From Planctomycetota bacterium (GTDB lineage Bacteria > Planctomycetota > UBA11346): a stretch of DNA of 61,045 bases. A program made the position numbers and the translations under genes. Below, one piece after another: positions 10,272 through 56,040 of this stretch (positions within the stretch are counted from its first letter, which is position 1; each line of letters begins with the position of its first letter). The DNA lies in the NCBI GenBank assembly GCA_038231435.1, contig JBBRLJ010000032.1:1-61045 (forward strand). The letters are read 5' to 3'. Below the pieces are notes generated by a model. That model saw only the letters and a program-made list of their open reading frames with translations. It searched no databases and was not told the DNA's origin.

Positions 10272-12662
10272 TCAAGCTGACCCGCTGCCCCACCGTCTGC
10301 GCCAGCCCATTCCTATCACCCATATCGCCACTCCCAGCCCGCCCAATCCACACCCGCCACCTCCAGACGCTGCTCCAGCAGATCCGCTGGAAGCCCCCGT
10401 GGTCCCGGTGGCGACTGTGCCCGTGCTTCCGGCTCCTCCACCCGTCCCGGCCGGCGTGGGCGTCACCGCGAACACCTTCTCGACGGCGAGCGCGCCCGAA
10501 TCCGTCGCGCGCACGCGTATCGAATACGCGGTGCCGGCCGACAGGGGCGCGGTCGAGACCAGTTGAGTGCCACTGATGCCGAACGATGCGTTGTCGCTCG
10601 CCCCCGCGCCGGCCACCAGGGTGAAGGCATGGCTGTCGCCGACATCCTCGTCGGTCGCCGCGAGCGTGCCGGCGACGGTCCCCGCGGCCGCACCGGCGAC
10701 GATGCCGCCGGTGAGCGCGATATCGGTGGGGGCCTCGTTCACGTCGAGCACGTTGATGACGATGTTCCGCCGGTACGAGATCCCCGCCGCATCGAAGACG
10801 GCGATCGTTAACGGGATCAACGGCTGCTGCTCGTGATCCAGCGCCGCGTTCACGAGCAGCGCTTGGGATGCCGATTGGAAGCTCACGTCGGCCCTGGGGG
10901 TGAAGGAATTCGCCGTGCCGATGAAGTAGGTGAAGGTATCGCCCGTGTCCTCGTCGGCCACGATGAGGTGGCCGATCACCGTGCCGATCGGGGAGTTCTC
11001 AAGCACGTCGACGGAGTCGATGGTGATGTCGGTCGGAGCGTGGTCGGCCATGATCAGTGCCATCGCCCCGTCGCCGGTGAACATCGCTGAGACGCCCTGG
11101 CATGAGAAATAGGCGTTCGTCTCGTACACGTAACCGCCCGCGGTGCGCGCGAAATGCCCATAGGCGGAAGAAGCGACCTCGACGAACGTCTGACCCACTG
11201 GCAGCGCGAAGGTCATGTCCGGCGGATATCCCCAGGTCTGCACCTGGCCGGTGTTCAATAGGGCGATCAATCCGTAGTCCGCGCACGAGCACGACGTGGC
11301 GGGGGCATTCTGGCCCGAGGACGCGATCGCGCCCCAGGTCACCAGCGTGCCCGAGGGCGTGATCGCCGCGCTGTGCAGGCGTCCGGCGGACACCTGGCTG
11401 ACCACCGCCGGCATCCAGAAGGGGGTCACGGCCTCGCCGTAATAGTTCGTTCCCCAGTTCGCGACCGAGCCATCGGCGTGCAGGATGAGCGCGTGCGCGC
11501 CGCAGGCGGAGATCGCGGTGACGCTGGTGTAGACCGGTAGCGTCGCGACCGCGCCCCATCCGACGACCGTGCCATCGCTCTTCAATGCCAACGAGAAGCC
11601 GTCGCCGGCGGCGACCGCAGTGACACCGTTCAAGCCCGCAGGCGGATCGCACTGGCCATCGCCGTTCCAGCCCCAGCACAGGACGGTGCCACCGATCGTG
11701 CGCGCGACGACGTGGCGTTCGCTGATCGCGAGGCTCGCGGGCGTGGCCAGGCCCAGGGGCGGTTCCACCGCGCCGCGCGTGCAGTCGAGACCCCAGGTGA
11801 CGACCGTACCATCGCTGCGCAGCGCGGCGAGATGATCCAGGCCTGCGCGCAGGTCGGTGACCTGGGTCGCGGCCGGCGGCGGCGGATCGATCGTTCCCCA
11901 ACATACCACCGTGCCGCCTGGCAGTAGCGCCGCGCTGCCATCGGCGGTCGCAGCGATGGCGATGACGCCGACGAGCCCACCGGGAACGGTGGATTGGCCG
12001 TGTCCGTTGTCACCCCAACAGGTGACGCTGCCGTCATCGTGCAGAGCCACCGTATGGGCGCGTCCGAGCGCCACGCGCGCGATGCCGGTGGTGCCTCCCG
12101 GAACCGCCGGGACGCTTGCGCCCCACTGCACCACCGTCCCGTCGACGGCGACGGCCATCGAGCGCGTGCTCCCCGTGTCGGTGGCGATCCAACGCGCGCC
12201 GCCCGCCGGCATCGGCACCGTCGCCGCCGATGCCGGATCGTTCGGTGTCCAGGTCATCACCGATCCGTCGGCCAGCCGGGCCACGCACGAGTTGCCGAAA
12301 TTGCTCACCTCGATCTGCGCGACCGCGGTGATCGCCGCGGGCATCGCATCGTAGCCGCTCGAGCTCCAAGTGCGCACGCTGGCGTCGTCAAGAAGGGCGA
12401 TCACGCGCGTAGAGGCGACGCTGACCGCCACGACGTGGGCCAGATCCGCCGGGACTGAAGGCGCGTAGATCGCCCAATGCACCACCCGGCCGCCGCTGAC
12501 CGCCGCGGTGCTGTACGCTCCGGCACCGATGGCGGTGACTCCACGTAATCCCTGGGGCGTACGGTTGCCGGCGAAGGTGTGGTTCCCGTCGACCATGACC
12601 ACGCCGTCGGCGGCCGACAGCATGCACGTGGACACGATCAGCAGCGATGAGCGGAGGAGCAT
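10272..12662 (-). CDS. Secreted RCC1-repeat + cadherin-like protein with C-terminal Cys-Gly sorting-like tail
   Basis: Signal peptide; RCC1 repeats (AAGDGFSLALKSDGTVVGWG); cadherin motifs (ENSPIGTVIG, LDHEQQ, DVNEAPTDI); tail GGGCGLGGLGVAIWVIGMGWRRR. Confidence 0.88.
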   Translation of the reverse strand: MLLRSSLLIVSTCMLSAADGVVMVDGNHTFAGNRTPQGLRGVTAIGAGAYSTAAVSGGRVVHWAIYAPSVPADLAHVVAVSVASTRVIALLDDASVRTWSSSGYDAMPAAITAVAQIEVSNFGNSCVARLADGSVMTWTPNDPASAATVPMPAGGARWIATDTGSTRSMAVAVDGTVVQWGASVPAVPGGTTGIARVALGRAHTVALHDDGSVTCWGDNGHGQSTVPGGLVGVIAIAATADGSAALLPGGTVVCWGTIDPPPPAATQVTDLRAGLDHLAALRSDGTVVTWGLDCTRGAVEPPLGLATPASLAISERHVVARTIGGTVLCWGWNGDGQCDPPAGLNGVTAVAAGDGFSLALKSDGTVVGWGAVATLPVYTSVTAISACGAHALILHADGSVANWGTNYYGEAVTPFWMPAVVSQVSAGRLHSAAITPSGTLVTWGAIASSGQNAPATSCSCADYGLIALLNTGQVQTWGYPPDMTFALPVGQTFVEVASSAYGHFARTAGGYVYETNAYFSCQGVSAMFTGDGAMALIMADHAPTDITIDSVDVLENSPIGTVIGHLIVADEDTGDTFTYFIGTANSFTPRADVSFQSASQALLVNAALDHEQQPLIPLTIAVFDAAGISYRRNIVINVLDVNEAPTDIALTGGIVAGAAAGTVAGTLAATDEDVGDSHAFTLVAGAGASDNASFGISGTQLVSTAPLSAGTAYSIRVRATDSGALAVEKVFAVTPTPAGTGGGAGSTGTVATGTTGASSGSAGAASGGGGCGLGGLGVAIWVIGMGWRRRWGSGSA

Positions 12663-12835
12663 GCCACGAGGATAGTCAGGCACCGCGCAATTCAACTAAT
12701 GCACTAATTACGCTTCATGCATCCGGGTATTATAGCGATTTATTCATTTGGCGATCAGTGCGGAGAGCTGTGCGCATCGCCATCGCTTCCCGCACCCCCG
12801 AGTGACGCCGGTGATGCTGACGCTGGTTCGCCGGC

Positions 12836-16287: not shown

Positions 16288-17337
16288 TCACCGCTTCGCG
16301 ACGCGGATCCTCGCGATCGCATTCGCCTGCAGCGCCACCCACATGTTCCCATCGGGCCCGGCGCAGATGCCGAACGGCTTGGCGTCCGGAGTGGCGAGCA
16401 CGAATTCGGTGACCTGGCCATCGGCGGTCATGCGGCCGATCCTCCCCACCTTGAATTCGCAGAACCACATGCAGCCATCGGGCCCGGCGGCGATGCCGAT
16501 CGGCTGGGCGCCAGCGGTGGGGATGGGGAATTCGCTGATCGCGCCCGCTGGCGTGATGCGGCCGATGCGTCCGCTCTTGTTCTCGGCGAACCAGAGGTTG
16601 CCGTCCGGTCCCGCGGCGATGTCGCGTGGGAAGGAGTCGGCGGTGGGGATGGGGAATTCGCTGATGACGCCGGATGCGATATCCAGCCGACCGATCGCGT
16701 TACGGGCCGACTCGGTGAACCAGACGCCGTGGTCGGCACCGCAGGCGACGCCGTAGGGTTTGCTCTCCGGATTCGGCAGCTCGTGCTCGGTGATCCCACC
16801 GGTGGCCGAGATGCTGGCGATGCGGTTGGCCGCCATCTCGGCGAACCACAGCGGACTATCGCCGCCGCCCCTCGTGTCACCACTTCCGGTGCCGATGCCG
16901 GCGATGACGCGCGGCCAGCTCCCGGGAGTCACCTCGTTCTTGGCACTCGCCCGCGAGGGGATCGCGAACGAGCCGGCGAATTCGCCATCGACGGTGATGC
17001 GGCGGATGCTGTTCTCCTCGCGCGAGGTGAACCACATCGCGCCATCTGAGCCCGCGGCGATGCCCTGGATCACGCCCACGCCCTGGCCGGGGATCGGGAA
17101 TTCGCTGAGCACCCCTTGCGGCGTCACGCGCACGATCTCGTGCATGAGCACCTCGGTCACCCACAGATTGCCGTCGGGCCCGACGGCGATGGCTTGGGGA
17201 CGATGGCCTTCGGTCGGCAGCGGGAAGACGTCGATGTCGTCGGCCCCCGGGGCTGCGAGGGCGGACAGCGCTCCCAGCAGCGTTCCCTGCAGCAGTACGC
17301 CGGTGATCACGGAGACGATGTGGGACGCGTGCGGCAT
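16288..17337 (-). CDS. Virginiamycin B lyase (Vgb)-like beta-propeller, probably secreted
   Basis: About seven repeats of P..I..GPDGNLWF.E....IGRI; hydrophobic N-terminus; GGAG RBS. Confidence 0.88.
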   Translation of the reverse strand: MPHASHIVSVITGVLLQGTLLGALSALAAPGADDIDVFPLPTEGHRPQAIAVGPDGNLWVTEVLMHEIVRVTPQGVLSEFPIPGQGVGVIQGIAAGSDGAMWFTSREENSIRRITVDGEFAGSFAIPSRASAKNEVTPGSWPRVIAGIGTGSGDTRGGGDSPLWFAEMAANRIASISATGGITEHELPNPESKPYGVACGADHGVWFTESARNAIGRLDIASGVISEFPIPTADSFPRDIAAGPDGNLWFAENKSGRIGRITPAGAISEFPIPTAGAQPIGIAAGPDGCMWFCEFKVGRIGRMTADGQVTEFVLATPDAKPFGICAGPDGNMWVALQANAIARIRVAKR

Positions 17338-17427: not shown

Positions 17428-18549
17428 TCAGGAGAACTCCAACACCTCGCCCACCGGCCGACGCAGGGTGCGCATCGACTCGGGCATCGCTGGCGACACT
17501 CCGGCGCGAAACATCCAGATCGGGCGCTCCCCGGCATCCATGCCGAAGGTCCGGCGCAGGATCTCGCCACCATTGCGGAAGAACGGCGCGGCGTCGGGCT
17601 CGATGAGTCCGGTGGCGCTGGCCAGGAAGGCGTAGAGCGACGACAGCGACAACGGCTGCACGCCGAATCCGGCGGTGGTGAGGCGCAGCCACGCGCGCAT
17701 CGCCGCCCGCCCCGCGTCGACCACCGTGGCGTGGCCGGTGCCGGTCACCGAGACGCACACCAGGCCGGCCGACGAGCGCAGATTGCGCTCGATCGTCCGT
17801 TCCTGCATCGCCTTCATGCCGCACGCCGCCAGCGGCCTGACCAGCCATGGCGCGCTGCGCAGGAGGCGCAGCATCGGGACCTCGAAGAAGCGGATGCCGA
17901 GATTGGCCAAGGGCATGCCGTCCCGCCGCGCCAGCGCCTCGCGCCGGCTGAAGCGCACCCAGGCCATCACCGCCGCGAACGCGACCGGATCCGCCAGCAG
18001 CGAGCTCTCGGCGGCCCGCGCGTAGGCGATCGCTGCATCATCGGGCGCGCTCGCGACGCGCACGCGCGCCGCGCCCACGCCATCGCTCGCGAGCGCGGCG
18101 GTCATCGACGCGTCGAACTCGCCGCCGAGGTACGCGCGCCGGTCGGTGCAGCGCCGCGAGATCGCCGCGGCCAGGATGTCGACGTCCACCGTGGGATCCG
18201 CGACGAAGCGCACGGTTGCCCACGGCTCCGGGCCATCCACGCTTCCATGCCCTGTCGGAGCGGTGACTCCGGCCGCCCCGCCGATGACGCCCTCGCCGTA
18301 GGTGACCCGCGCGCGCAGACCGTGCGTAGTCGCCGTGATCGATGCGGACTCCACCACGCAGCCCAACGTCAGCAGCGATCCATGGTCGCCACGATTGATC
18401 GGATGCCGCGCACGTTCGTGGTCATGGCGGATGGCGAGGACGCGACCGTCCCACGCGAACCGCCAGGGCTGGCAGTTGTCGCCGCTGGGCGCCTGCAGGC
18501 AGGCGGCGACGATGGCGCGCACCGTGGCGGGATCGACGGCCGAGGCCAT
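17428..18549 (-). CDS. Nitroreductase-fold flavoprotein (Acg/TyzC/OxzB-oxidase-like)
   Basis: APSGDNCQPWRF, ISRRCTDRRAY, AGRAAMRAWL..T..G..VQP, final RRP; alternative GTG start at 18627. Confidence 0.85.
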   Translation of the reverse strand: MASAVDPATVRAIVAACLQAPSGDNCQPWRFAWDGRVLAIRHDHERARHPINRGDHGSLLTLGCVVESASITATTHGLRARVTYGEGVIGGAAGVTAPTGHGSVDGPEPWATVRFVADPTVDVDILAAAISRRCTDRRAYLGGEFDASMTAALASDGVGAARVRVASAPDDAAIAYARAAESSLLADPVAFAAVMAWVRFSRREALARRDGMPLANLGIRFFEVPMLRLLRSAPWLVRPLAACGMKAMQERTIERNLRSSAGLVCVSVTGTGHATVVDAGRAAMRAWLRLTTAGFGVQPLSLSSLYAFLASATGLIEPDAAPFFRNGGEILRRTFGMDAGERPIWMFRAGVSPAMPESMRTLRRPVGEVLEFS

Positions 18550-18551
18550 CG

Positions 18552-18605
18552 CCGAAGCACTGTCCGAAGCACTGTTCGGGGCGATGTCCGGGGCGATGTC
18601 CGAGG
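18552..18605. repeat. Degenerate 12-bp tandem repeat (about 4.5 units)
   Basis: ccgaagcactgt ccgaagcactgt tcggggcgatgt ccggggcgatgt ccgagg. Confidence 0.8.
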
Positions 18606-18643
18606 TGAGGGCGGTCGCTTCGCCCACGGGTCTGCTCAGAGGT

Positions 18644-19567
18644 TCAACCCACGGCACGGCGGCGCTCCCCGGCGGCGTGGCGATGAGTCGCGCGGGTCCC
18701 GTCCAGCGCCTCGCTCGCGCCCTTGGCTGCCGCCGGATCCATGGCGATGGATGGCGTCGGTACCCTCGCGATGCCGAACCAGGCCGCCTCCTCTGCTGGC
18801 ATCGGCGAGGCGTTGCGGGCCAGGGCCTCGGCGATGAGGCCCTCCTCGAGCCACGGGTAGAATTCGGGATAGAGCAGGCCGGCACTCTCGTGGGCGGCCG
18901 TGCCCATCCGCCGGGCGTAGTGGGCGAGATCGCAGCGCAGCAGCACGGTGGGCTGTCCACCGACGCTCGGGCAGGCGCGCTGGCCGCCCAGCTGCTCGAA
19001 TCCCAGATTGCGCATATACCAGCGCGCGCGGCACGGATGGACCTCGATGACCGCGTCGTCGGCGTGGCCGATGCACGCCGCGTGGATGTACAGCAGGTTG
19101 ATCAGGCGCAGCAGGATCGCGCGGTCGTGGCGATGCCCGTCCGCGATGCACAGGCGGCAGACCTCGACCACCGTACGGCCGCGCGCGCGCAGCGCGGCCA
19201 TCTCACCTGGGAACAGCCGATCCGCCGGCAGGCCGGATTGCGCGCGGTAGGCGAGGGTCGCGGTCGCGACCGCCGCGCTGGCGTCGTCCTCGATCAGCAG
19301 CGTCAGGGTCGATGGCTCGGCATCGTACGGCCACACCAGGCGGCCGTGGTCGTTCTTGGCATAGCCGTGCGCGCTGTAGACGTCGTAGGCGAGGGTGTAG
19401 GCGCGGTCGCGCGTCGCGCGGTCGGCGGCGAGCCTCGCGATAAAGTGGTTCGAGGTCTCTGCGGACGAGAACGGCCATGCAAAGGGCCGCTCGTCGATCA
19501 GGGCGCGGGCCTCGTCGATCACGTCGGTCAGGCTGGTTCCGGTCTGGGCAGTGGTGAAGGTCAGCAT
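18644..19567 (-). CDS. FeeM-like long-chain N-acyl amino acid synthase (GNAT fold)
   Basis: AAGGA RBS; AYTLAYDVYSAHGY, ATATL, GLPADRLF, VVEVCRL, IEVHP...WY...LGFEQLG...CPSVGG.P.VLL, C-terminal LYP. Confidence 0.85.
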   Translation of the reverse strand: MLTFTTAQTGTSLTDVIDEARALIDERPFAWPFSSAETSNHFIARLAADRATRDRAYTLAYDVYSAHGYAKNDHGRLVWPYDAEPSTLTLLIEDDASAAVATATLAYRAQSGLPADRLFPGEMAALRARGRTVVEVCRLCIADGHRHDRAILLRLINLLYIHAACIGHADDAVIEVHPCRARWYMRNLGFEQLGGQRACPSVGGQPTVLLRCDLAHYARRMGTAAHESAGLLYPEFYPWLEEGLIAEALARNASPMPAEEAAWFGIARVPTPSIAMDPAAAKGASEALDGTRATHRHAAGERRRAVG

Positions 19568-19638
19568 GGCGTCGTTCCTTCTGATGATTCTAGGCTTCGT
19601 TGGCGGCGTCAGACGAGGTATGGCGGTCTCAGGCGATC

Positions 19639-20664
19639 TCAGGTGCACGCTAGGCGACGGTCCAGCAGTTCGCGCTCGTGCAGCGCGCGGAATGCGGGGA
19701 AGCGGGCGAAGGCGAGGCGGCGCAGCAGGCGCCCGCGCCAGGTGCGCAGGCCGGGCCGTCGGCGCAGCGAGCGCGTGCGGTTGCGCCACAGGTCGTAGTA
19801 CACGCCGTGGGGCGAGGCCGCGAGGCGGCCTCGCCCGACCAGCAGCTTGAGGCATTCGCTCGCCGCGCCGGCGGCGCACAGCAGGCATGCCGATACCAGC
19901 GCCGGTCCGGTCTCTGCCGCGATATCCACGCGCGAGGGATCGACGTCGCTGACCAGGCCGGGCGACAGCCCGAGCGCGAACGACAACAGCTGCTCGGCGC
20001 GCGTCAGCTCGCCGTCCCCGCCGCGTCCCGGATCCCCCATGTTGAAGTACTCGTCGAACGACATGCCGCCGGGAACGATGGTCATGATGGCGGCGCCGTA
20101 GCCCAGTGGCCCGGCGATGACGACGGGGATGCGGCGCTCGTGGCAGGCCTGGAAGAGCATGCGCCGTATCTCGATGCGGAAGTAGTCGATGCCGTCGATG
20201 ACGACGTCGACGCCCTCGAGGAAGCGCGCGATGTTGCCGGGGTTGATGCCTTCGCGCCACGTGCGCGCGTCGATGCCTGGATTGATCGCGCGGGCGGTGC
20301 GTTCGAGCACCAGCGCCTTCTCCTCGCCCATGGTATCCGCGGTCGCACCGAGCTGGCGATTGGTGTTCGCCAGCGAGAAGGTGTCGAGGTCGGCGAGGTT
20401 GAGCGCGCCGATGCCGAGGCGGGCGATGGCCTGGACGTGCGCGCCGCCGACGCCGCCAAGTCCGGCGATCGCGACCCGCGCGCGGCGCAGGCGCAGCTGC
20501 TCGGCCTCCGAGACCAGGCCGAGATTACGCGCGAACGCGGTGGCGTAATCGAAGGGGGGTGCGGCGGCGCGCGCGCGCTCACGGTCATCGCCGTGCATCG
20601 CCGGACCCGGCTCGTCCGCGACGCGCTGGTCATGAGCCTGATCCACGAGGTGCGCCGTCGCCAT
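19639..20664 (-). CDS. ThiF-family adenylyltransferase (FeeI/OxzB-N/TyzB-like)
   Basis: FARNLGLV, VAIAGLGGVGG, D.DTFSLANTNRQ, VIDGIDY, PGGMSFDEYF; GGAGG RBS. Confidence 0.9.
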   Translation of the reverse strand: MATAHLVDQAHDQRVADEPGPAMHGDDRERARAAAPPFDYATAFARNLGLVSEAEQLRLRRARVAIAGLGGVGGAHVQAIARLGIGALNLADLDTFSLANTNRQLGATADTMGEEKALVLERTARAINPGIDARTWREGINPGNIARFLEGVDVVIDGIDYFRIEIRRMLFQACHERRIPVVIAGPLGYGAAIMTIVPGGMSFDEYFNMGDPGRGGDGELTRAEQLLSFALGLSPGLVSDVDPSRVDIAAETGPALVSACLLCAAGAASECLKLLVGRGRLAASPHGVYYDLWRNRTRSLRRRPGLRTWRGRLLRRLAFARFPAFRALHERELLDRRLACT

Positions 20665-20895: not shown

Positions 20896-20935
20896 GTTCT
20901 GCTGGTTAGAACATATTTGTTCCATATCTCAGAAC
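20896..20935. promoter_or_regulatory. Two tandem IclR-type operator boxes (GTTC-N9-GAAC)
   Basis: GTTCTGCTGGTTAGAAC at 20896-20912 and GTTCCATATCTCAGAAC at 20919-20935, directly upstream of the IclR gene. Confidence 0.7.
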
Positions 20936-20946
20936 GAACATCGTCG

Positions 20947-21684
20947 ATGAACAACACCCTCGCGAACGGCCTCGCGCTGCTGCGTTTCCTCAGCGGTACC
21001 GCCGAGCGATTCGGCGTGAGCGAACTCGCCGCGCGGCTGGAGCTGCCCAAGAGCCATGTGCACCGCCTGTTGCGCACGCTGGTGGAGACCGGCTACGCGG
21101 TACAGGAGCCGGATCGCCGCTATCGCATCGGCCTGCGTCCGCTCGAGGTCTCATGCGCGCTGCTCCAGCACCTGCCGCTGCGCGTGGCCGCCGTACCGCT
21201 GATCCATCTCCTGGCGAAGAGCACCGGCATGGACGCTATCACCAGTATCCCCTTCGACGGCGCCGGCCTGATCGTCGCCGCTATCCATCCGGATGGCCGC
21301 CAGCGCGACCCCAGCGCGTCGATCGGCGGGCGCCTGCACCCGGACCACACCGCCACCGGCAAGGCGTTCAGCGTCCTCATTCACGGCTTCGCCCCGCCGC
21401 CGAAGCTATCCACGAGCGAGCTCGCCCGCATCCGCCGCGACCGCTTCGCGATCAAGGATCCGACCCTGGCAGCGCCGATGAACGGCATGGCGGCGGTGGT
21501 CGCGGACGCGTCCGGCACGGTGCTGGGCGCCCTTGGACTGGCGGCTCCTGGTGAGGATTTCCGCCGCCATTTCGCCAAGGCTGCGGCGGCGCTGCGCGCC
21601 GCCGCCACCGAACTGGAGGCGCGCCTGGCCCGACCCGAGCCGGTGTCCGAGCCGAAGGCGAAACCGATGGAGGTCCGGGCATGA
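20947..21684 (+). CDS. IclR family transcriptional regulator
   Basis: GVSELAARLELPKSHVHRLLRTL HTH; HTATGKA effector-domain motif. Confidence 0.92.
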   Translation: MNNTLANGLALLRFLSGTAERFGVSELAARLELPKSHVHRLLRTLVETGYAVQEPDRRYRIGLRPLEVSCALLQHLPLRVAAVPLIHLLAKSTGMDAITSIPFDGAGLIVAAIHPDGRQRDPSASIGGRLHPDHTATGKAFSVLIHGFAPPPKLSTSELARIRRDRFAIKDPTLAAPMNGMAAVVADASGTVLGALGLAAPGEDFRRHFAKAAAALRAAATELEARLARPEPVSEPKAKPMEVRA

Positions 21685-22574
21685 ATGCCGCCACCATCCC
21701 CAGCCGTCCGTCATTCCTGCATCCCGGATGGGTCGAAGAATATCGCGAGCGCGGCTACGCCGTGTTGCGCGGCGTGTTCGCGCGCGGCGAGATCGCGGAG
21801 CTGCAGGCGGCCTTCGACCGCACCTATGCCGAGTGCATGCGTCATCCCAAGACCTGGAGGCACCAGAACCGCGTGGTCTGGGTGAACCACGATGTGACCG
21901 TGGGCCGGTTCGTCAGCGGCTGCCAATGGCAGTCGTGGGTGGATCCGGTGCTCGACCGCGTGCGCCACGACCCGCGCATGCTCGCCATGCTCGAGCCGTT
22001 GATCGGCGACGATCTCAAGCAGATCATCAACCAGATGCATTGGAAGGTGCCCGGCACGGGCTACACCTGGGGCATGCATCAGGACGTGCGCTCGCGCACG
22101 CCACGGCACTGCTTCCGCGAGTTAGCGACGTCCTACGTGCAGACCGGCATCGCCATCTCACGCCACTGGGGCGGGAACGGAGCGATGAAGATCATACCCG
22201 GCAGCCATCTCCACGGCGATCTGGCCATCGACGGCGGCGCGCGCCGCTTCGACGCGGCGCGCGACGCAGCGGTCGCCGAGCGGGGCCTCGATCCACGCCT
22301 GGCGATCGATGTCGAGCTCGAACCGGGAGACGTCGTGCTGTGGTCTCCATTCGTCGTGCACGGCGGAGGCATCAACACCACCGCACACGATTACCGGCCA
22401 TTCTACATCAACGGCTACGTCACGTCGGCGATGTGCGACCGCGGACAGCCGGTGTTCGCGCGCGGGCGGCCGGTGCCACTGACCATCCCCGCGCTGGTGC
22501 AGTATGAGGATCTCTACATCCGGCCGGAGCCGCACTATCCCGAGGACCAGGCGTCGCTGCTGCAGCGCGACTGA
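21681..22574 (+). CDS. PhyH family Fe(II)/2OG dioxygenase
   Basis: MHWKVP, MHQD, NGAMKIIPGSH, LEPGDV...VVHGG; ATGA overlap with IclR. Confidence 0.9.
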   Translation: MNAATIPSRPSFLHPGWVEEYRERGYAVLRGVFARGEIAELQAAFDRTYAECMRHPKTWRHQNRVVWVNHDVTVGRFVSGCQWQSWVDPVLDRVRHDPRMLAMLEPLIGDDLKQIINQMHWKVPGTGYTWGMHQDVRSRTPRHCFRELATSYVQTGIAISRHWGGNGAMKIIPGSHLHGDLAIDGGARRFDAARDAAVAERGLDPRLAIDVELEPGDVVLWSPFVVHGGGINTTAHDYRPFYINGYVTSAMCDRGQPVFARGRPVPLTIPALVQYEDLYIRPEPHYPEDQASLLQRD

Positions 22575-22742: not shown

Positions 22743-25700
22743 ATGGAATCGGGCGCGGGCGACGAAACGGAGGCGTTGGAGCGGAAACCGCGGCAGGAAA
22801 CCGCCTCCACAGAACCGTCGCTCGATCAGCCGAGCCTGGCGAAGCTGCTGAGCGGACGGGTCGGCCTGCTGCCCTGGGAGCAAGCTCGTCGCTTCCGCAT
22901 CGACGAGGTGCTGGGCGTGGGCGCCAACGGGCGCATCTATGCGCTGCGCGATCTCGATCTCGACCGCCCGCTGGCGCTCAAGACCTTCGTTCCCGGCACC
23001 GCCGATGACGACCAGTTCAGGTCATTCATCGCCGAGGCCCGCACCATGGCGGAGCTTCAGCATCCGAACGTGTCTCCGGTCTACGACCTCGGCCTCGACA
23101 CCAACGGCAACGTCTTCTTCACCATGAAACGCATCGAGGGCCGCTCGCTCGGCAGCATCCTCGAGCTCTCGACGGCCGAACAGCCCGACGCGCGCATCGC
23201 CAACACCAATCAGGTGGTCTCGATCGCCATCGCGGTGTGCGGCGCCTTGGCCTACGCACACCACCGCGGTGTGGTGCACCAGGACGTCAAGCCCGACAAC
23301 ATCATGATCGGCGATTTCGGCGAGGTCCTGCTCATCGACTGGGGCAGCGCCGTGCACCTCGCCCAGGAGTCGGAGCGCGACCGCATGTACGCGACGCCCC
23401 TGTACATGAGCCCCGAGCAGGCGAACCGGCGGCGCACGGATGCGCGCAGCGACGTCTACTGCATGGGCGCGACGCTCTTCCAAGCGCTGCTCTTCCGCCT
23501 GCCCACCATGATCGACGAGCCCGAGCAGTTGTGGGACCGCAAGCGACGCGGCGACATCGACGCGCCGAGCAGCGAGGAGCGTCGCCGCGTGCCGTCGGGG
23601 CTGCTCGCGATCGCGCTGAAGGCGCTGGCCGCCGATCCGGCCGCGCGTTACCAGGATGCCTCGGCGATGCTCCAGGATCTCCAGGACTTCCAGGCCGGGC
23701 TCGCGGTGAGCGCGCGTGTCGAGCCGCTCTTCGAGCGCCTGGCGCGCTGGTACCGGCGCAACCGCAAGCTGTTCTGGTTGTCGGGCGTGTCCGCGCTGCT
23801 GATCGCTGCGATCACCTCGTTGTTCGCGATCGAGAAGGCCAAGGAGCGCGCGAGCTGGAGGGTGGTCTACGACGCATCGTTCGCGGGCGCCTCGCTAGCC
23901 AAGCTCGACGAGGCGTGGACGGCGACGATCGCCGAGAACATGCTCGGCGAATTCTCGCCCTCGCCGATTGCCGCGCCGGTGTTCGTTGCCGACGACCGCG
24001 GCCTGGTCCTCCACGGCAATCTCGGCTACACCGACCTTACCTACCGTGGCGATCTGGTTGGCGACATCCGCGTCGAGTGGACGTACCGCAGCGACCGGCA
24101 CAACCTCAACTTCAACTGCTTCATCGGTGGACCCGACCGCTGGAACTCGAACATGTTCCACGTCGGGTCCTGGAACAACGCGGCCTACGTGGCGCTCACC
24201 CGGGACAAGGAATACAACGTCATCGACAGCGACTACCTCGCCACTCCGCTCGCTGCCGGCCACGAATACCGTTTCGTGATGGAGCAGGAAGGCGGCCGGC
24301 TGCGCCTGCTGATCGACGGCCGCGCGGTGTTCGATGTCGACAATCCGTCTGACGCCTACGGCGGTCACTCGAACACCTTCGGCTTCGACACCGTCGGGTT
24401 TACGGACCTGCGCATCGGCCGCGTGCGCGTGCTGCACAAGCCGATGCCGTTGCGGATCTCGCCATTGATAGTCGCGGACAAGCTCACGCAGATGCACGAT
24501 TATCCGCGCGCGGCGCAGCAGTACCTCGACATCATCACGTCGTATCCGGGCACCGCCCTGGCGCCCATCGCCCAATTCCGCTATGCGGTGTGCTGCCTGC
24601 GCGCGGGCGATGCCGAGCGCTCGTGCGCGCTGCTCGAACGCCTGGTGAACGAGCACCCCGACTCCGAGGAGGCGCCGTACGCGCTGTACGAACTGATCGC
24701 GTCGAAACGCCGATCCGGCGATCTTCCTGCGGTGGCCGCGCTGCTCGAGCGCTGCGCGCGCTGGAAGGGCCACGCGGCGCTCTCACGCGTCATGGCCGAG
24801 ATCGCCGATAGCCACATGCCCGAGCTGGCGCCTCTGCAGGTCGCCCATGTGGGCGATCCCGAGCACCGGCCCGACCTGGTCGCGCGCATCGAGAGCACCT
24901 TCTCCGAGCTGCGTGGCTGGGGCGATCGCTTCGGCGTTCCCTGGTGGAAGAACACCTACGTGTTCACCGCCGGCGACATGCTCAAGCAGGCTGGCGCGTT
25001 CGCGGATGTGCTCGCCTGGTATCCGAGGCAGGCGTACTGCCACCAGATCACCCTGCTCGAATCCGCTCGCTACGACGAGATCATCGCGGTCGCTCCCGAG
25101 GGCAGCTGGAGCGGCGGCTGGGCCCTGATCGGCCTCGGCCGCGAGCAGGAGGTCTTGGATCAGGGCCGCTACAACGAAGATATGGTCTGGGACATCCATG
25201 CGTCGCGAGGAGATCTGCCGCTGCTGCTTGCAGACCGCGACCTGGCCCCAACGCAATGGGCGCGCACGCTGGTGATGGCCGGACGATTCGACGAGGCCCT
25301 GTCCGCCCACCCCGATCCAAAAACCCTGGTCGCCGCGCTGATCGGCCTGGGACGCGCGCGCGAGATCGAGAGCCGCAGCCAGGATCCGATCGCCATCTCT
25401 CGCGCGCTCGTCGAGCTGTGCGAGTACGCGCGGCTCGAGCGCGAATTCCCCACCATCTACGAGAACCTCTATCTCGCCGCCGAGCACCAGTGGTTCGAGG
25501 GTGATCGCGCGGCGTGCTCACGCCTGCTCGCCGATCTGGAGCGCGCGCAAGTGCCCTTCGCTTCAGACGACACCATGTTCGGACGCTGGGTCCTGCCTGG
25601 ATGCGTTGCGGTCATAGTGGATCACGCAGATCCCGCGACGGTGTTCGCCCCGGTGATCGCCCGGTGCCACGACTGGTATCAGCAGCGGGTGTGGTACCTG

Positions 25701-27774: not shown

Positions 27775-30135
27775 ATGGACCGCATCCCCCTCGACCGTGC
27801 CTGTAAACAACGCGCACTCGGCGTCATGTTCGCCATCGCGATCGTGCTCGCTGGATACGGAACGCCCGTTTCGGCAGCTACATCGGGTTCGCTGACCTTC
27901 CAGACCACCTGGGTCGGCAACGGTCTCCCGGGCCACGGCCAATGGGTGCAGGACGATGTGGCGGACGCGTGGATCGCTCCCGATGGGGGCGTGTACACCG
28001 ACAGCCCCTGGGACGAGGCCGGCGCAGACGGCGCTCTCTATCGCGACGGGCGGATGATCGCCTCGGCGAAGCACATGAACGGTTGGGGCCAGTACGGCGG
28101 CCGCGCGGTCGCGGGCAACGCCACCTACGTGTGGCTGGGGATGCGCTTCGACAGCGAGAACGGCGGCTTGGTGGATGTGGGCACCTGGCCGCCCAAGGGG
28201 ACCTGGTGGTTCGGCGTGACGCGGCGCAAGCGCTCCGACATCACCCAGGGCGCGCCCTTCACGGGCGGCACAGGCGGGGCGGGCGATACGCTCGTCGCCA
28301 GCTTCAAGACCATTGAGGTGGTCCCGGACGGCGTCGACGCGTCGATCAGCGGCCTCGCCGCCACCGAGACACGGCTTTTCGTCAGCGATCCGCGCGGTTC
28401 GCGCATCGTGGTGCTCGACGCCGCGACGATGGCGCAGGTCGCCAGCTTCGCCTTCACCGCGCCGGGCAAGATCGCCGTCGATAAGGCCGGCGACCTGTGG
28501 ATCGTGCGCACCGACACCAACCGCATCGTCCATTGCTCCGCCAGCGGGGCGCCGCTCGGCGGGGATATCGTCGATGCCGCGCTCCCGACCGGATTGGCGA
28601 TCGACAGCCATGGGCGCCTGATGGTGTGCGACAGCGGACCCGACCAGTGGATCCGTGTCTACACGCTCAGCGGCACGCCTTCCCAGACGCCCGCGCTGGC
28701 GTCCACCATCGGCATAAAGGGCGGCATGATCGGCAATGGCGGCCGGGTCACGCCGCTCGCGCTCTGCGGCCCGGTCGGCTGCGGAACCGATGCCAACGGC
28801 AACGTCTATGCGGTGTGCGCGCTGCCGACCGGCGGCACCGTGATACGCGCCTTCACTCCGGCCGGCGCGACGCTGTGGCAGCTGCACGGGCTCGAATTCC
28901 AGAAGGTTGCCGCGGTCGATCCGGCCAGCGACGACATCATCAGCGCGCGGCACCATTACGCGATGGACTGGAGCAAGCCCATCGGCCAGGAGTCGTCCTG
29001 GAATGGTTTCAACCTCGATCCACTGCGCTATCCCGAGGATCCGCGCCTGCACATCAACGCCTATAACGCGCGCATCATCCATCTCCAGGGTCACCGCTTC
29101 CTGGTCTGTGACGCCGACGGGCAGTCGCTGTCGATCTACCGCTACGACGGCGAGGTCGCGGTGCCGTCGGTGGTGATTTCGAACTACGCGTCGTTCCTCG
29201 ACATGTATCATCCGCACGGCTCCCCGAATTCGCGCTTCGTGTGGCGCGACAAGAACGGAGACGGGAGATTCTCCTCGGACGAGTACGAAACCGATGGTCA
29301 GGCATCATCGGGCTGGATGTGGTCGATCGATGCGAACGGCGACGTCTGGCAGGGCGAGAAATCGATCCACCACTGGCGCATGGAGGGCCTCGACGCGATC
29401 GGCAATCCGATCTACGATTTCACCGCATCGGAGGAGATCCCGCTGCCTGCGCCGCTCACCATCATCGAGCGCCTGCATTACGAGCCGGCCTCGGACAGCA
29501 TGATCGTCACCGGCTACACCAGCGCGCGCCCGCAGACGCTGGCGTACTGGGGCATGACCGGCACCGAGTTGATCCGCTATGACGCCTGGAAGGGGACGCG
29601 CGCTATCGCCTACCGTACCCCCCTGCCGTATGCCGACGATTGGGCGCAGCAGTGCAAGGGCTTCGACGTCGCCGGCAACCTGGTGTTCATCGGCGTGGTC
29701 GCGACCTCCGAAATCAAGGCCTACGACCGCGCAACCGGGGCGTACAAGGGGTCGCTCGTTCCCGAGGGCGCATGCGCTTTCGAGGGGGGTTGGCTCGACA
29801 TGACCGAGCCGCTGCGCGCCCATCGCCGCGCCAACGGCGAGTACATCGTGCTCTCCGAGGAGGTGTGGAAGAACAAGATCCTGGTCTACCGCATGACCAA
29901 TGCCGGCGATCCCGTGCCCGCGCCTCCGCCGGCACCGACGCCGCCCGGCCCGGCGCCTGCGCCTGCTGGCGGCTCCGCGCCGGCCGATTCGGGCGCCGCC
30001 GAGCCGGACGGCGGCACGCATCACTGCGGACGCGGCACGGGTTCGGCGCTGGCGCTGGTCCTGGGCGCGCTGGCGGCGTTGGGGGCCGCGCGGCGGATGC
30101 CCACCCGGTTCGGTTCCCGGAGACGCCACGGCTGA
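27775..30135 (+). CDS. Secreted NHL/beta-propeller protein with Pro-rich linker and Cys-Gly sorting-like tail
   Basis: GGAG RBS; PGKIAVD, PTGLAIDSHGRL repeats; WRDKNGDG EF-hand-like motif; tail HHCGRGTGSALALVLGALAALGAARR. Confidence 0.82.
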   Translation: MDRIPLDRACKQRALGVMFAIAIVLAGYGTPVSAATSGSLTFQTTWVGNGLPGHGQWVQDDVADAWIAPDGGVYTDSPWDEAGADGALYRDGRMIASAKHMNGWGQYGGRAVAGNATYVWLGMRFDSENGGLVDVGTWPPKGTWWFGVTRRKRSDITQGAPFTGGTGGAGDTLVASFKTIEVVPDGVDASISGLAATETRLFVSDPRGSRIVVLDAATMAQVASFAFTAPGKIAVDKAGDLWIVRTDTNRIVHCSASGAPLGGDIVDAALPTGLAIDSHGRLMVCDSGPDQWIRVYTLSGTPSQTPALASTIGIKGGMIGNGGRVTPLALCGPVGCGTDANGNVYAVCALPTGGTVIRAFTPAGATLWQLHGLEFQKVAAVDPASDDIISARHHYAMDWSKPIGQESSWNGFNLDPLRYPEDPRLHINAYNARIIHLQGHRFLVCDADGQSLSIYRYDGEVAVPSVVISNYASFLDMYHPHGSPNSRFVWRDKNGDGRFSSDEYETDGQASSGWMWSIDANGDVWQGEKSIHHWRMEGLDAIGNPIYDFTASEEIPLPAPLTIIERLHYEPASDSMIVTGYTSARPQTLAYWGMTGTELIRYDAWKGTRAIAYRTPLPYADDWAQQCKGFDVAGNLVFIGVVATSEIKAYDRATGAYKGSLVPEGACAFEGGWLDMTEPLRAHRRANGEYIVLSEEVWKNKILVYRMTNAGDPVPAPPPAPTPPGPAPAPAGGSAPADSGAAEPDGGTHHCGRGTGSALALVLGALAALGAARRMPTRFGSRRRHG

Positions 30136-54945: not shown

Positions 54946-56040
54946 ATGCTCATCTCATCCATGCGCGTCTCGATCGCGATCTCCGTCATCCTCGGATTCG
55001 TGTCCTTCGTGCCGGTCATCGGAGCCGCCACCGCGTGGCCCGGAGCCGACACCACGGGACCGGTCCATCCCGAACTGCTGACGCCGTCGGGATCGCTGAC
55101 CCTGAGCGTCGCCGGGGCGGTGATCCAGGATCTCGACATCGCGGGCAAACTCACCGTCAAGGCCGACGGCATCACCATCCGCAATTGCCGGATCACGGGT
55201 GGTTCGCCCTACTGCATCACCATCGACGCGGCGGTCACGGGCCTGCTCATCGAGGACTGCGAACTCGATGGCGGCGGCGTCAGTTCGTCGGCGTTGCTCG
55301 GCGGCGGCTTCACCGCCAGGCGGTGCGACGTGCACCATACCATGGGCGACGGTTTCAAGCCGACGAGCGATCTGGTGGTCGAGGACTGCTGGATCCACCA
55401 TCTCGGCATGGGCGTCGGGTCGCATGCCGACGGCATGCAGATGGCGAAGGGCGGGCGGGTGATCTTCCGCCGCAACAACTTCGACATGCCTATCGATGTC
55501 GACGGATTCCACAGCAACTCCGCCTGCTTCATCATGACCGACACCGGGCCGATAGACGACGTGCTGATCGAAGGGAACCGTTTCGACGGCGGCAACTACA
55601 CCATCTACCTGGTCGACAAGCTGAAGGGCTTCGGTCCGCCCACCAACGTACGCGTGATCGGCAACACCTTCGGTCCGGATTACCGTTACGGAACCTCGCA
55701 TATGGACGGTACTCCGGTCTGGACCGGCAATGTCTTCGAAGCCACCGGCGCTCCGGTCTCCACGGGAACGAATTCGCCGTCGACGGGCACGACTACGTCC
55801 GGCGGCACGTCCGGCACCACCGCCACGGGCACATCGGCTTCCGGTACCGCGTCGGGAGGGAGCGCGGCCGGTACGTCCGCCTCGAGCGCCACGACGTCCG
55901 GATCCACCACCGGCGCGCCGGCGTCCACCACGGCTGCCGAGGGCGGTTCCAGCACCACGCGCTGCGGTCTCGGCAACGCACTGGCGGCATCGGCCGGGCT
56001 GGCGGCCCTGCTGGCACGAGGTCGGCGCGAGCGACGGTAG
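54946..56040 (+). CDS. Secreted right-handed beta-helix protein with Ser/Thr/Gly linker and Cys-Gly sorting-like tail
   Basis: Signal peptide; WPGADTTG, ITIRNCRI, VEDCWIH, SHADGMQ; tail RCGLGNALAASAGLAALLARGRRERR. Confidence 0.85.
   Translation: MLISSMRVSIAISVILGFVSFVPVIGAATAWPGADTTGPVHPELLTPSGSLTLSVAGAVIQDLDIAGKLTVKADGITIRNCRITGGSPYCITIDAAVTGLLIEDCELDGGGVSSSALLGGGFTARRCDVHHTMGDGFKPTSDLVVEDCWIHHLGMGVGSHADGMQMAKGGRVIFRRNNFDMPIDVDGFHSNSACFIMTDTGPIDDVLIEGNRFDGGNYTIYLVDKLKGFGPPTNVRVIGNTFGPDYRYGTSHMDGTPVWTGNVFEATGAPVSTGTNSPSTGTTTSGGTSGTTATGTSASGTASGGSAAGTSASSATTSGSTTGAPASTTAAEGGSSTTRCGLGNALAASAGLAALLARGRRERR

Follow-up and report, generated by a model that had tools for sequence, protein, structure and literature searches.

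Contig JBBRLJ010000032.1, a 61,045-nucleotide stretch of DNA from an uncultured bacterium assigned to the phylum Planctomycetota (the whole of which is referred to here as the window), carries three intact, co-directional neighbouring genes on its minus strand (positions 17428-20664) that encode a ThiF protein, a FeeM-type acyltransferase plus an oxidase that depends on flavin (FDO). The window is one contig (C32) of a 5.2-Mb genome that is 88% complete. The ThiF gene begins with an ATG at 20664, with GGAGG located 6 nt upstream, and is separated from the acyltransferase gene by 71 nt. The likely start of the FDO gene is a GTG at 18657 that yields a protein of 409 residues, is preceded by GGGGAG 7 nt upstream and overlaps the stop of the acyltransferase gene; an alternative ATG at 18549 would yield 373 residues. 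A 510-residue open reading frame (ORF) from 18960, as delimited by the ORF finder, was rejected as an over-extension. The G+C content at third codon positions (GC3) is of the coding type, at 0.88-0.89, in each of the three ORFs. An initial annotation of this DNA had described three closely spaced co-directional genes, and this description is borne out by the three intact minus-strand ORFs, by their family matches and by their GC3 values.

Table 1. Coordinates of the three genes and of other features in the window
Feature	Position	Strand	Remarks
ThiF/E1-like adenylyltransferase, PRK08223 family	19639..20664	-	341 aa; predicted cyclodehydratase (role of TyzB or of the OxzB N-terminal domain)
N-acyl amino acid synthase of FeeM type, GNAT fold	18644..19567	-	307 aa; predicted N-acyltransferase (role of OxzA, TyzA or NasY)
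Acg-fold FDO, nitroreductase superfamily	17428..18657	-	Predicted desaturase (role of TyzC or of the OxzB C-terminal domain)
Variant segment in the FDO gene	17748-17783		36 nt replaced by 3 in one contig of run X2 and in database protein P0004
Vgb/streptogramin-B-lyase-like beta-propeller	16288-17337	-	Signal-peptide-like N-terminus; co-directional, directly downstream; below Vgb cut-offs
IclR regulator and PhyH-family dioxygenase	20917-22574	+	Divergent; upstream region common with the cluster
Ser/Thr kinase domain	about 22900-23800		
Large proteins with Gly-rich C-terminal tails	10272-12695, 27775-30135, 54946-56040		CG(L/R)G, hydrophobic stretch, basic residues

Two exact contigs of one sequencing run, possibly that of the source sample, span the whole stretch and overlap by 7 bases inside the ThiF gene, and large parts are covered almost identically in two further runs of the same study. 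A related strain from a second study is represented by pieces in all three genes at a depth of about 4-5. Among 40 of its differences (a further 48 lie beyond these), 39 are within the genes, 28 of which are silent and 29 of which fall at third codon positions. The three genes are real, being neither a product of chance nor an assembly artefact, and from these substitutions they look to be under purifying selection.

The ThiF protein matches Pfam PF00899 (155.7 bits) and scores 326.5 bits against the NCBIfam equivalog model PRK08223 (NF006077), above the cut-off of 266. Its scores against other NCBIfam models are 251 bits (PRK14851), 208.5 bits (PRK14852), 79.7 bits (MoeB), 77.5 bits (TcdA) and 75.7 bits (Rv1355c family); against the E1-like models for MoeB, ThiF and TcdA it reaches 64-89 bits, short of cut-offs that range from 152 to 377. 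Alignment with Escherichia coli MoeB, ThiF and TcdA reveals that the ATP site is kept (R46, G68/G70/G71, D92, N100, R103, Q104, K116 and D160) and that the MoeB zinc cysteines C172/C175 and catalytic cysteine C187 are lost. A quick tree built from 108 ThiF domains puts the window protein in an eight-member group composed only of same-phylum proteins (98 in the Shimodaira-Hasegawa-like approximate likelihood ratio test, SH-aLRT), with the three E. coli proteins placed outside this group on long branches. Two close database relatives, 56-58% identical, are named 'Planctomycetota bacterium'. Together with DUF1559-like matches and a weak RpoB comparison, in which identity was 42% to a Planctomycetales genome as against 36-37% to a myxobacterial and a Nitrospirota genome (an rpoB having been obtained from three of five reference genomes), these names point to a likely Planctomycetota host. 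The grouping with MoeB, TcdA or MccB that the initial annotation had named as contrary to its proposal is thus not what the family scores, the tree and the lost cysteines reveal. The protein belongs instead to an oxazolone-linked ThiF group, a group whose limits are set in this analysis by gene fusion with, or location next to, FDO and acyltransferase genes rather than by aligning its members with OxzB or TyzB. The ThiF cluster that Kleetz et al. link to oxazolones comprises 2,416 sequences.

The central gene product matches the Pfam FeeM family (PF21926) at 135.9 bits, against a cut-off of 27, and its sole sequence match in the PDB is FeeM (2G0B). A structural model (predicted local distance difference test, pLDDT, 87) likewise finds FeeM 2G0B as its best fold match (E 6.6e-12; template modelling score 0.81 on the target), followed by BjaI and LasI, so that a gene of the fold shared by FeeM and acyl-homoserine lactone synthases adjoins the ThiF and FDO genes. 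Glu135 aligns with the catalytic glutamate of FeeM (Glu95; chain position 96), and the residue matching Glu95 is reported to be essential in Nas354 (PMC4897644). The family motif EVNPRH is changed to EVHPCR both in the window protein and in a 60%-identical relative (P0024), such that the N-P-x-H pattern, which is not a published family-defining requirement, reads H-P-C-R. In addition, the aspartate present at position 108 in 176 of 205 homologues has been lost. The altered histidine position aligns with FeeM His145 (chain position 147), with a numbering offset that differs by one from that of the glutamate. The replacement of histidine by arginine at the donor motif lessens our confidence in the usual acyl donor, and to judge from these residues the donor of the window enzyme may be a different one.

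The FDO matches the Pfam nitroreductase family weakly (30.6 bits) and scores 137.5 bits against the Acg family, 116.7 against the Rv1355c family and 97.1 against PRK14851, all below the respective cut-offs. Its model, which has a pLDDT of 88 and a disordered stretch over residues 1-32, has Acg (2YMV) as best fold match at an E value of 5.8e-17, far ahead of ordinary nitroreductases, and an Acg-fold oxidase therefore adjoins the other two genes. The motifs APSGDNCQPW, RRCTDRR, QP, RxG and LRR are kept, and no second FDO was found in the genome. FeeM and BjaI have been reported as fold neighbours of TyzA (PMC10404671), and Acg as the structural neighbour of TrzS and TyzC (PMC12856293, PMC10404671). 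As the window proteins have the same fold neighbours as these characterised enzymes, we count the agreement in favour of a related pathway. The variant segment listed in Table 1 deletes a conserved stretch of the FDO and is absent from runs X1 and X3; it represents a rare allele if it is not an artefact of assembly. A further relative of the FDO, P0012, is fused behind a 270-residue N-terminal domain that has no Pfam match.

Linkage of the three functions extends well beyond this locus. All three window proteins match a single triple-fusion model, PRK14852, and they are colinear with DVU_RS16045, an uncharacterised fusion protein of 989 residues encoded by the Nitratidesulfovibrio vulgaris plasmid pDV, whose FeeM (42-199), ThiF (314-585) and FDO (606-985) domains are 28%, 44% and 24% identical to the respective window proteins. 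Unlike the window genes, DVU_RS16045 is one polypeptide from an anaerobic host and resides in a PEP-CTERM/exosortase locus. The nearest relatives of the three genes (74%, 60% and 61% identical) are in each case encoded on a contig that is 11,020 bp long; they likely share one contig and would then represent a second copy of the trio.

Loci were also retrieved by means of the FDO, and those with the best matches (80 of 169 from genomes and 80 of 270 from metagenomes) were annotated with purpose-built profiles. Among the 80 genome loci, ThiF was found in 57, a FeeM-type gene in 36 and both in 34, and the layouts tallied comprise 24 split, 12 with ThiF and FDO fused and two triple fusions; the corresponding counts for the 80 metagenome loci are 31, 23 and 16. 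When only the 45 genome loci flanked by 3 kb or more on either side are considered, ThiF is present in 32, a FeeM-type gene in 24 and both in 22. All three functions co-occur in 57 of 183 related loci, for which the commonest layout is acyltransferase-ThiF-FDO (11 split, eight with ThiF and FDO fused and three triple), and the co-directional order ThiF-acyltransferase-FDO is found in the window only (one of 57). In a single draw of 401 genomes from the host's phylum, among which kin are not independent, the ThiF family was detected in 17 genomes, the FDO in 22 and both in 12; the FDO is thus present in 12 of 17 ThiF-holding genomes versus 10 of 384 that are devoid of ThiF. A sample of 400 gammaproteobacterial genomes centred on a Methylomarinum genome yielded ThiF matches in 43. 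The best 30 of these loci, with 1.5-kb flanks, include 21 with an acyltransferase, 15 with an FDO and 10 with ThiF-FDO fusions, nine of which adjoin an acyltransferase. This last arrangement matches, at the level of architecture, the oxzAB genes of de Rond et al., and the fusions in this sample have ThiF domains that share 45-51% identity with the window ThiF. The families, the folds, most of the catalytic residues and the linkage of the three genes in multiple genomes are direct observations.

The gene set is also distributed across Bdellovibrionota, Desulfobacterota, Nitrospirota, Omnitrophota and other groups, anaerobes included. Many fused or clustered versions occur in Desulfobacterota and other anaerobes (for example L228:7062-10031, and loci L063, L068, L051 and L059), which is puzzling given that the characterised oxidase step uses O2; these versions may employ another electron acceptor or catalyse another reaction. 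Two further arrangements were encountered among the related loci. One locus (L013; G039:C154:1-11644) holds three ThiF paralogues within 11.6 kb, each of which has upstream of it, as read from the ORFs, genes for an extracytoplasmic function (ECF) sigma factor and for a long anti-sigma-like protein; one of these paralogues is followed by a FeeM-type gene, and an FDO match is absent from the genome. Acyltransferases with FeeM and PilZ domains are found beside Bdellovibrionota clusters (L020:1665-2948).

By analogy with OxzAB and TyzACB, we consider it probable that the three genes constitute an operon for an acyl-oxazolone or N-acyl-dehydroamino acid. A promoter scan of the locus revealed no sigma-70-like site, and the terminator-like matches from the same scan were at chance level only. 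The acyl donor, the adenylation and cyclisation, the desaturation and the aromatic substrate proposed below are all modelled on characterised systems. The FeeM-type enzyme would N-acylate an amino acid using acyl-coenzyme A or an acyl-acyl carrier protein (ACP) as donor. ThiF would then adenylate the carboxylate with ATP, allowing the amide oxygen to close the ring (-18 Da), and the Acg-fold FDO would carry out an alpha,beta-desaturation dependent on flavin mononucleotide and O2 (-2 Da) to give an acyl-oxazolone lipid. We infer that the amino acid is aromatic, because all described products of such pathways derive from Tyr, Phe or Trp (PMC12856293). Cyclisation and desaturation are reported to follow an obligate order in TrzS and a free order in TyzBC (PMC12856293). 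O2 is plausible in the host, since its genome contains a haem-copper oxidase gene. At pH 8, oxazolones are hydrolysed in a matter of hours (de Rond preprint, bioRxiv 10.1101/2020.06.11.147165), and what builds up may therefore be the N-acyl-2,3-dehydroamino acid with its ring opened, as is the case for the stieleriacines. Oxazolones are also described as labile to both acid and base (PMC12856293). The steps put forward in the initial annotation, namely N-acylation, ATP-dependent cyclisation and desaturation, thus find support in families, folds, residues, fusions and co-occurrence, with the function being a predicted one.

Several known systems resemble the window locus. The tyrazolone pathway TyzACB of Mycobacterium tuberculosis (Rv2336, Rv2337c, Rv2338c; PMC10404671) likewise comprises three separate proteins, described as an acyltransferase with the FeeM/BjaI fold, a free-standing ThiF and a monomeric Acg-like FDO, also free-standing, of approximately 370 residues. 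In that system tyzA lies on the strand opposite to tyzBC, whereas the window genes are all co-directional with the acyltransferase in the centre. The stieleriacine clusters of Stieleria, which are planctomycetes, also have separate nasY, ThiF and nitroreductase genes (PMC12479983, PMC7293339; MIBiG BGC0002080). They are described for two species, and a nasY knock-out has been made (PMC12479983, PMC7293339). These clusters add methyltransferases and several nasY copies, whereas no methyltransferase was found among the scanned neighbours of the window genes. An operon-like three-gene form is described for the thalassotalic acid (Thalassotalea) and kyonggic acid (Massilia) clusters, and the products isolated from Stieleria, Thalassotalea and Massilia are ring-open N-acyl-dehydrotyrosines (PMC12479983, PMC7293339). 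The same three domain activities are present in OxzAB, a system described for Pseudoalteromonas rubra and further proteobacteria (bioRxiv 10.1101/2020.06.11.147165), and in TrzAS (PMC12856293), although in OxzB and TrzS, unlike in the window, ThiF and FDO are fused. The window ThiF is moreover distant from the TrzS (PRK07877) type.

A number of observations weigh against assignment of the locus to this kind of pathway. Membership is judged from families, fusions and adjacency. PRK08223 is labelled 'hypothetical', and the score of the window ThiF for the Rv1355c/TrzS family is no better than that for TcdA. Position 180 of the acyltransferase is Arg, where 187 of 205 homologues have His, and FeeM His145 has been placed in the phosphopantetheine tunnel (PMC11685415). 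The initial annotation's description of the motifs as intact accordingly stands for the ATP site of ThiF, the FDO motifs and the FeeM catalytic Glu, and fails at this one near-invariant residue. Among loci flanked on both sides by 3 kb or more, 11 of 45 from genomes and nine of 20 from metagenomes have neither partner near the FDO. ThiF is encoded elsewhere in four of five genomes examined that have such partner-less loci, and it was not found in the genome of Archangium gephyra, whose FDO locus is without a partner. No shared alternative partner emerged among 57 neighbour proteins of FDO-only loci in Bdellovibrionota and Myxococcota. Within Stieleria, the in-cluster nasY of S. neptunia is reported not to be the main producer, and oxazolones have gone unseen in Stieleria, Massilia and Thalassotalea (PMC12479983).

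The components of the operon differ in their affinities. The ThiF sisters, as well as the closest acyltransferase among the loci (45.5% identical; L217), come from the host's phylum. The FDO instead groups in a tree with enzymes from Bdellovibrionota and Myxococcota and not with the oxidases located beside the sister ThiFs. A single clade uniting the window FDO and its three nearest relatives with four oxidases beside sister ThiFs was rejected (approximately unbiased test, p-AU 4e-6), in a quick tree of 32 rows and with a group that was named after the larger FDO tree had been inspected. With a ThiF and acyltransferase whose relatives come from the host's phylum and an FDO of Bdellovibrionota/Myxococcota type, the operon therefore looks mosaic to judge from sequence relationships. 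The distribution is patchy: at E 1e-30 the ThiF is found in one of 24 same-family genomes and in neither of two same-genus genomes (61% and 79% complete), and in these two fragmented genomes only a repeated gene family near the locus matched the window flanks. Judged by their codons (62nd-76th percentile), the three genes look like ordinary genes of this host and hence give no sign of recent transfer.

A second locus in the same genome (contig C1; G000:C1, L001:5179-11729) encodes FabH, a TIGR03694 acyltransferase, a ThiF paralogue that is 60% identical to the window ThiF, and a DevBCA-like exporter. The acyltransferase scores above the cut-off of TIGR03694, the family named 'PEP-CTERM/exosortase system-associated acyltransferase', and an ACP-like gene with a WDS motif has a weak Pfam match. 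No FDO was found at the C1 locus. It is conceivable, if doubtful, that the window operon is a recently assembled mosaic in which a planctomycete-type ThiF and acyltransferase, a Bdellovibrio/myxobacterial-type FDO and a rebuilt donor tunnel (HPCR) together produce an undescribed class of oxazolone. If so, the product might be an oxazolone formed from a non-aromatic amino acid or carrying an unusual acyl group, and the single FDO might also finish the products of the FDO-less ThiF/acyltransferase/FabH/ACP locus on C1.

The C1 locus also bears on two other explanations. The window acyltransferase might have changed or lost its donor specificity, leaving ThiF and the FDO to finish another N-acyl substrate, possibly one supplied by the C1 acyltransferase locus. 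The change from EVNPRH to EVHPCR and the loss of D108 would be in keeping with this, as would the pairing of a 60%-identical ThiF with an above-cut-off TIGR03694 acyltransferase at a locus devoid of an FDO, in a genome whose sole FDO lies in the window. However, the HPCR motif is also kept in the 60%-identical relative, the enzyme retains its catalytic Glu and its fold, and the acyltransferase differences of the related strain are 12 silent to one non-silent among those listed, and we regard this explanation as unlikely. Alternatively, the N-acyl amino acid activated by ThiF (as adenylate or azlactone) could, instead of ending up as a released small molecule, be passed to an acceptor at the cell surface, such as exopolysaccharide or a protein sorted by a PEP-CTERM/exosortase system. 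The location of DVU_RS16045 in an XrtA/PEP-CTERM locus, the family of the C1 acyltransferase, a link between synthases and exosortase loci noted in PMC7293339, and the five of 17 same-phylum ThiF-holding genomes without an FDO match are all compatible with such a role. Exosortase and exopolysaccharide families are nevertheless absent among the flanking proteins scanned, and free oxazolones are reported to be released by the characterised members, both in vitro and when these are expressed in a heterologous host (de Rond preprint, PMC10404671, PMC12856293), which makes transfer to a surface acceptor quite improbable here. A literature search found no work joining exosortase, acyltransferase, ThiF and PEP-CTERM, and none on oxazolone, Bdellovibrio and N-acyl amino acid together.

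The genes might, finally, not belong to one pathway, with ThiF acting in MoeB/ThiF-type sulfur transfer, in TcdA-type tRNA modification or in maturation of a ribosomally synthesised and post-translationally modified peptide (of the MccB/PaaA kind, or azole-type with a SagB-like oxidase). TcdA is indeed the best PDB sequence match of ThiF (E 5e-20), but this match is limited to residues 59-188, and the PRK08223 score is four times those of MoeB and TcdA. The placement of the E. coli proteins outside the SH-aLRT 98 group and the loss of the zinc and catalytic cysteines also argue against such functions. Moreover, YcaO was not found in the 88%-complete genome, nor was an evident precursor-like ORF found upstream, and a separate, more distant member of the ThiF family is encoded on contig C12. 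Taken together, these features leave this explanation highly improbable.

The locus is very probably an ordinary member of a known and widespread kind of acyl-oxazolone or N-acyl-dehydroamino acid pathway. The split layout, which the initial annotation had offered as new, is already seen in TyzB and TyzC, which are separate proteins (PMC10404671). Its claim of planctomycete novelty is likewise unsupported save in a narrow sense: the Stieleria clusters are in print, but their ThiF and oxidase steps are unproven, with no planctomycete ThiF or FDO assayed and no oxazolone seen in these bacteria (PMC12479983). In a literature search on tyrazolone, oxzAB, OxzB and phenazolone, the host lineage was absent from the titles. 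Since earlier publications already cover this type of pathway, its split arrangement and its occurrence in planctomycetes, the importance of the locus is modest. Specific to the window copy are the gene order, an FDO that groups with Bdellovibrionota/Myxococcota enzymes, the altered donor motif and the second, FDO-less ThiF/acyltransferase locus. As a compact, self-contained trio, it could reveal whether an oxazolone is what a planctomycete-type ThiF and FDO produce, the point unproven for the stieleriacines, and whether the real product is the oxazolone or the ring-open dehydroamino acid. The altered donor motif and the swapped FDO also make it a reasonable choice for widening the known product range.

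Two neighbours of the trio were considered as pathway components and rejected. The downstream Vgb-lyase-like gene has no homologue in any related locus fetched, and three paralogues of it occur elsewhere in the genome. The IclR/PhyH pair, which is divergent, likewise has no homologue in any of these loci. Elsewhere in the window, three large proteins terminate in a Gly-rich CG(L/R)G segment followed by a hydrophobic stretch and basic residues, an arrangement resembling a C-terminal sorting signal. The Ser/Thr kinase domain belongs to an expanded family, with dozens of copies that are approximately 70% identical in both same-genus genomes.

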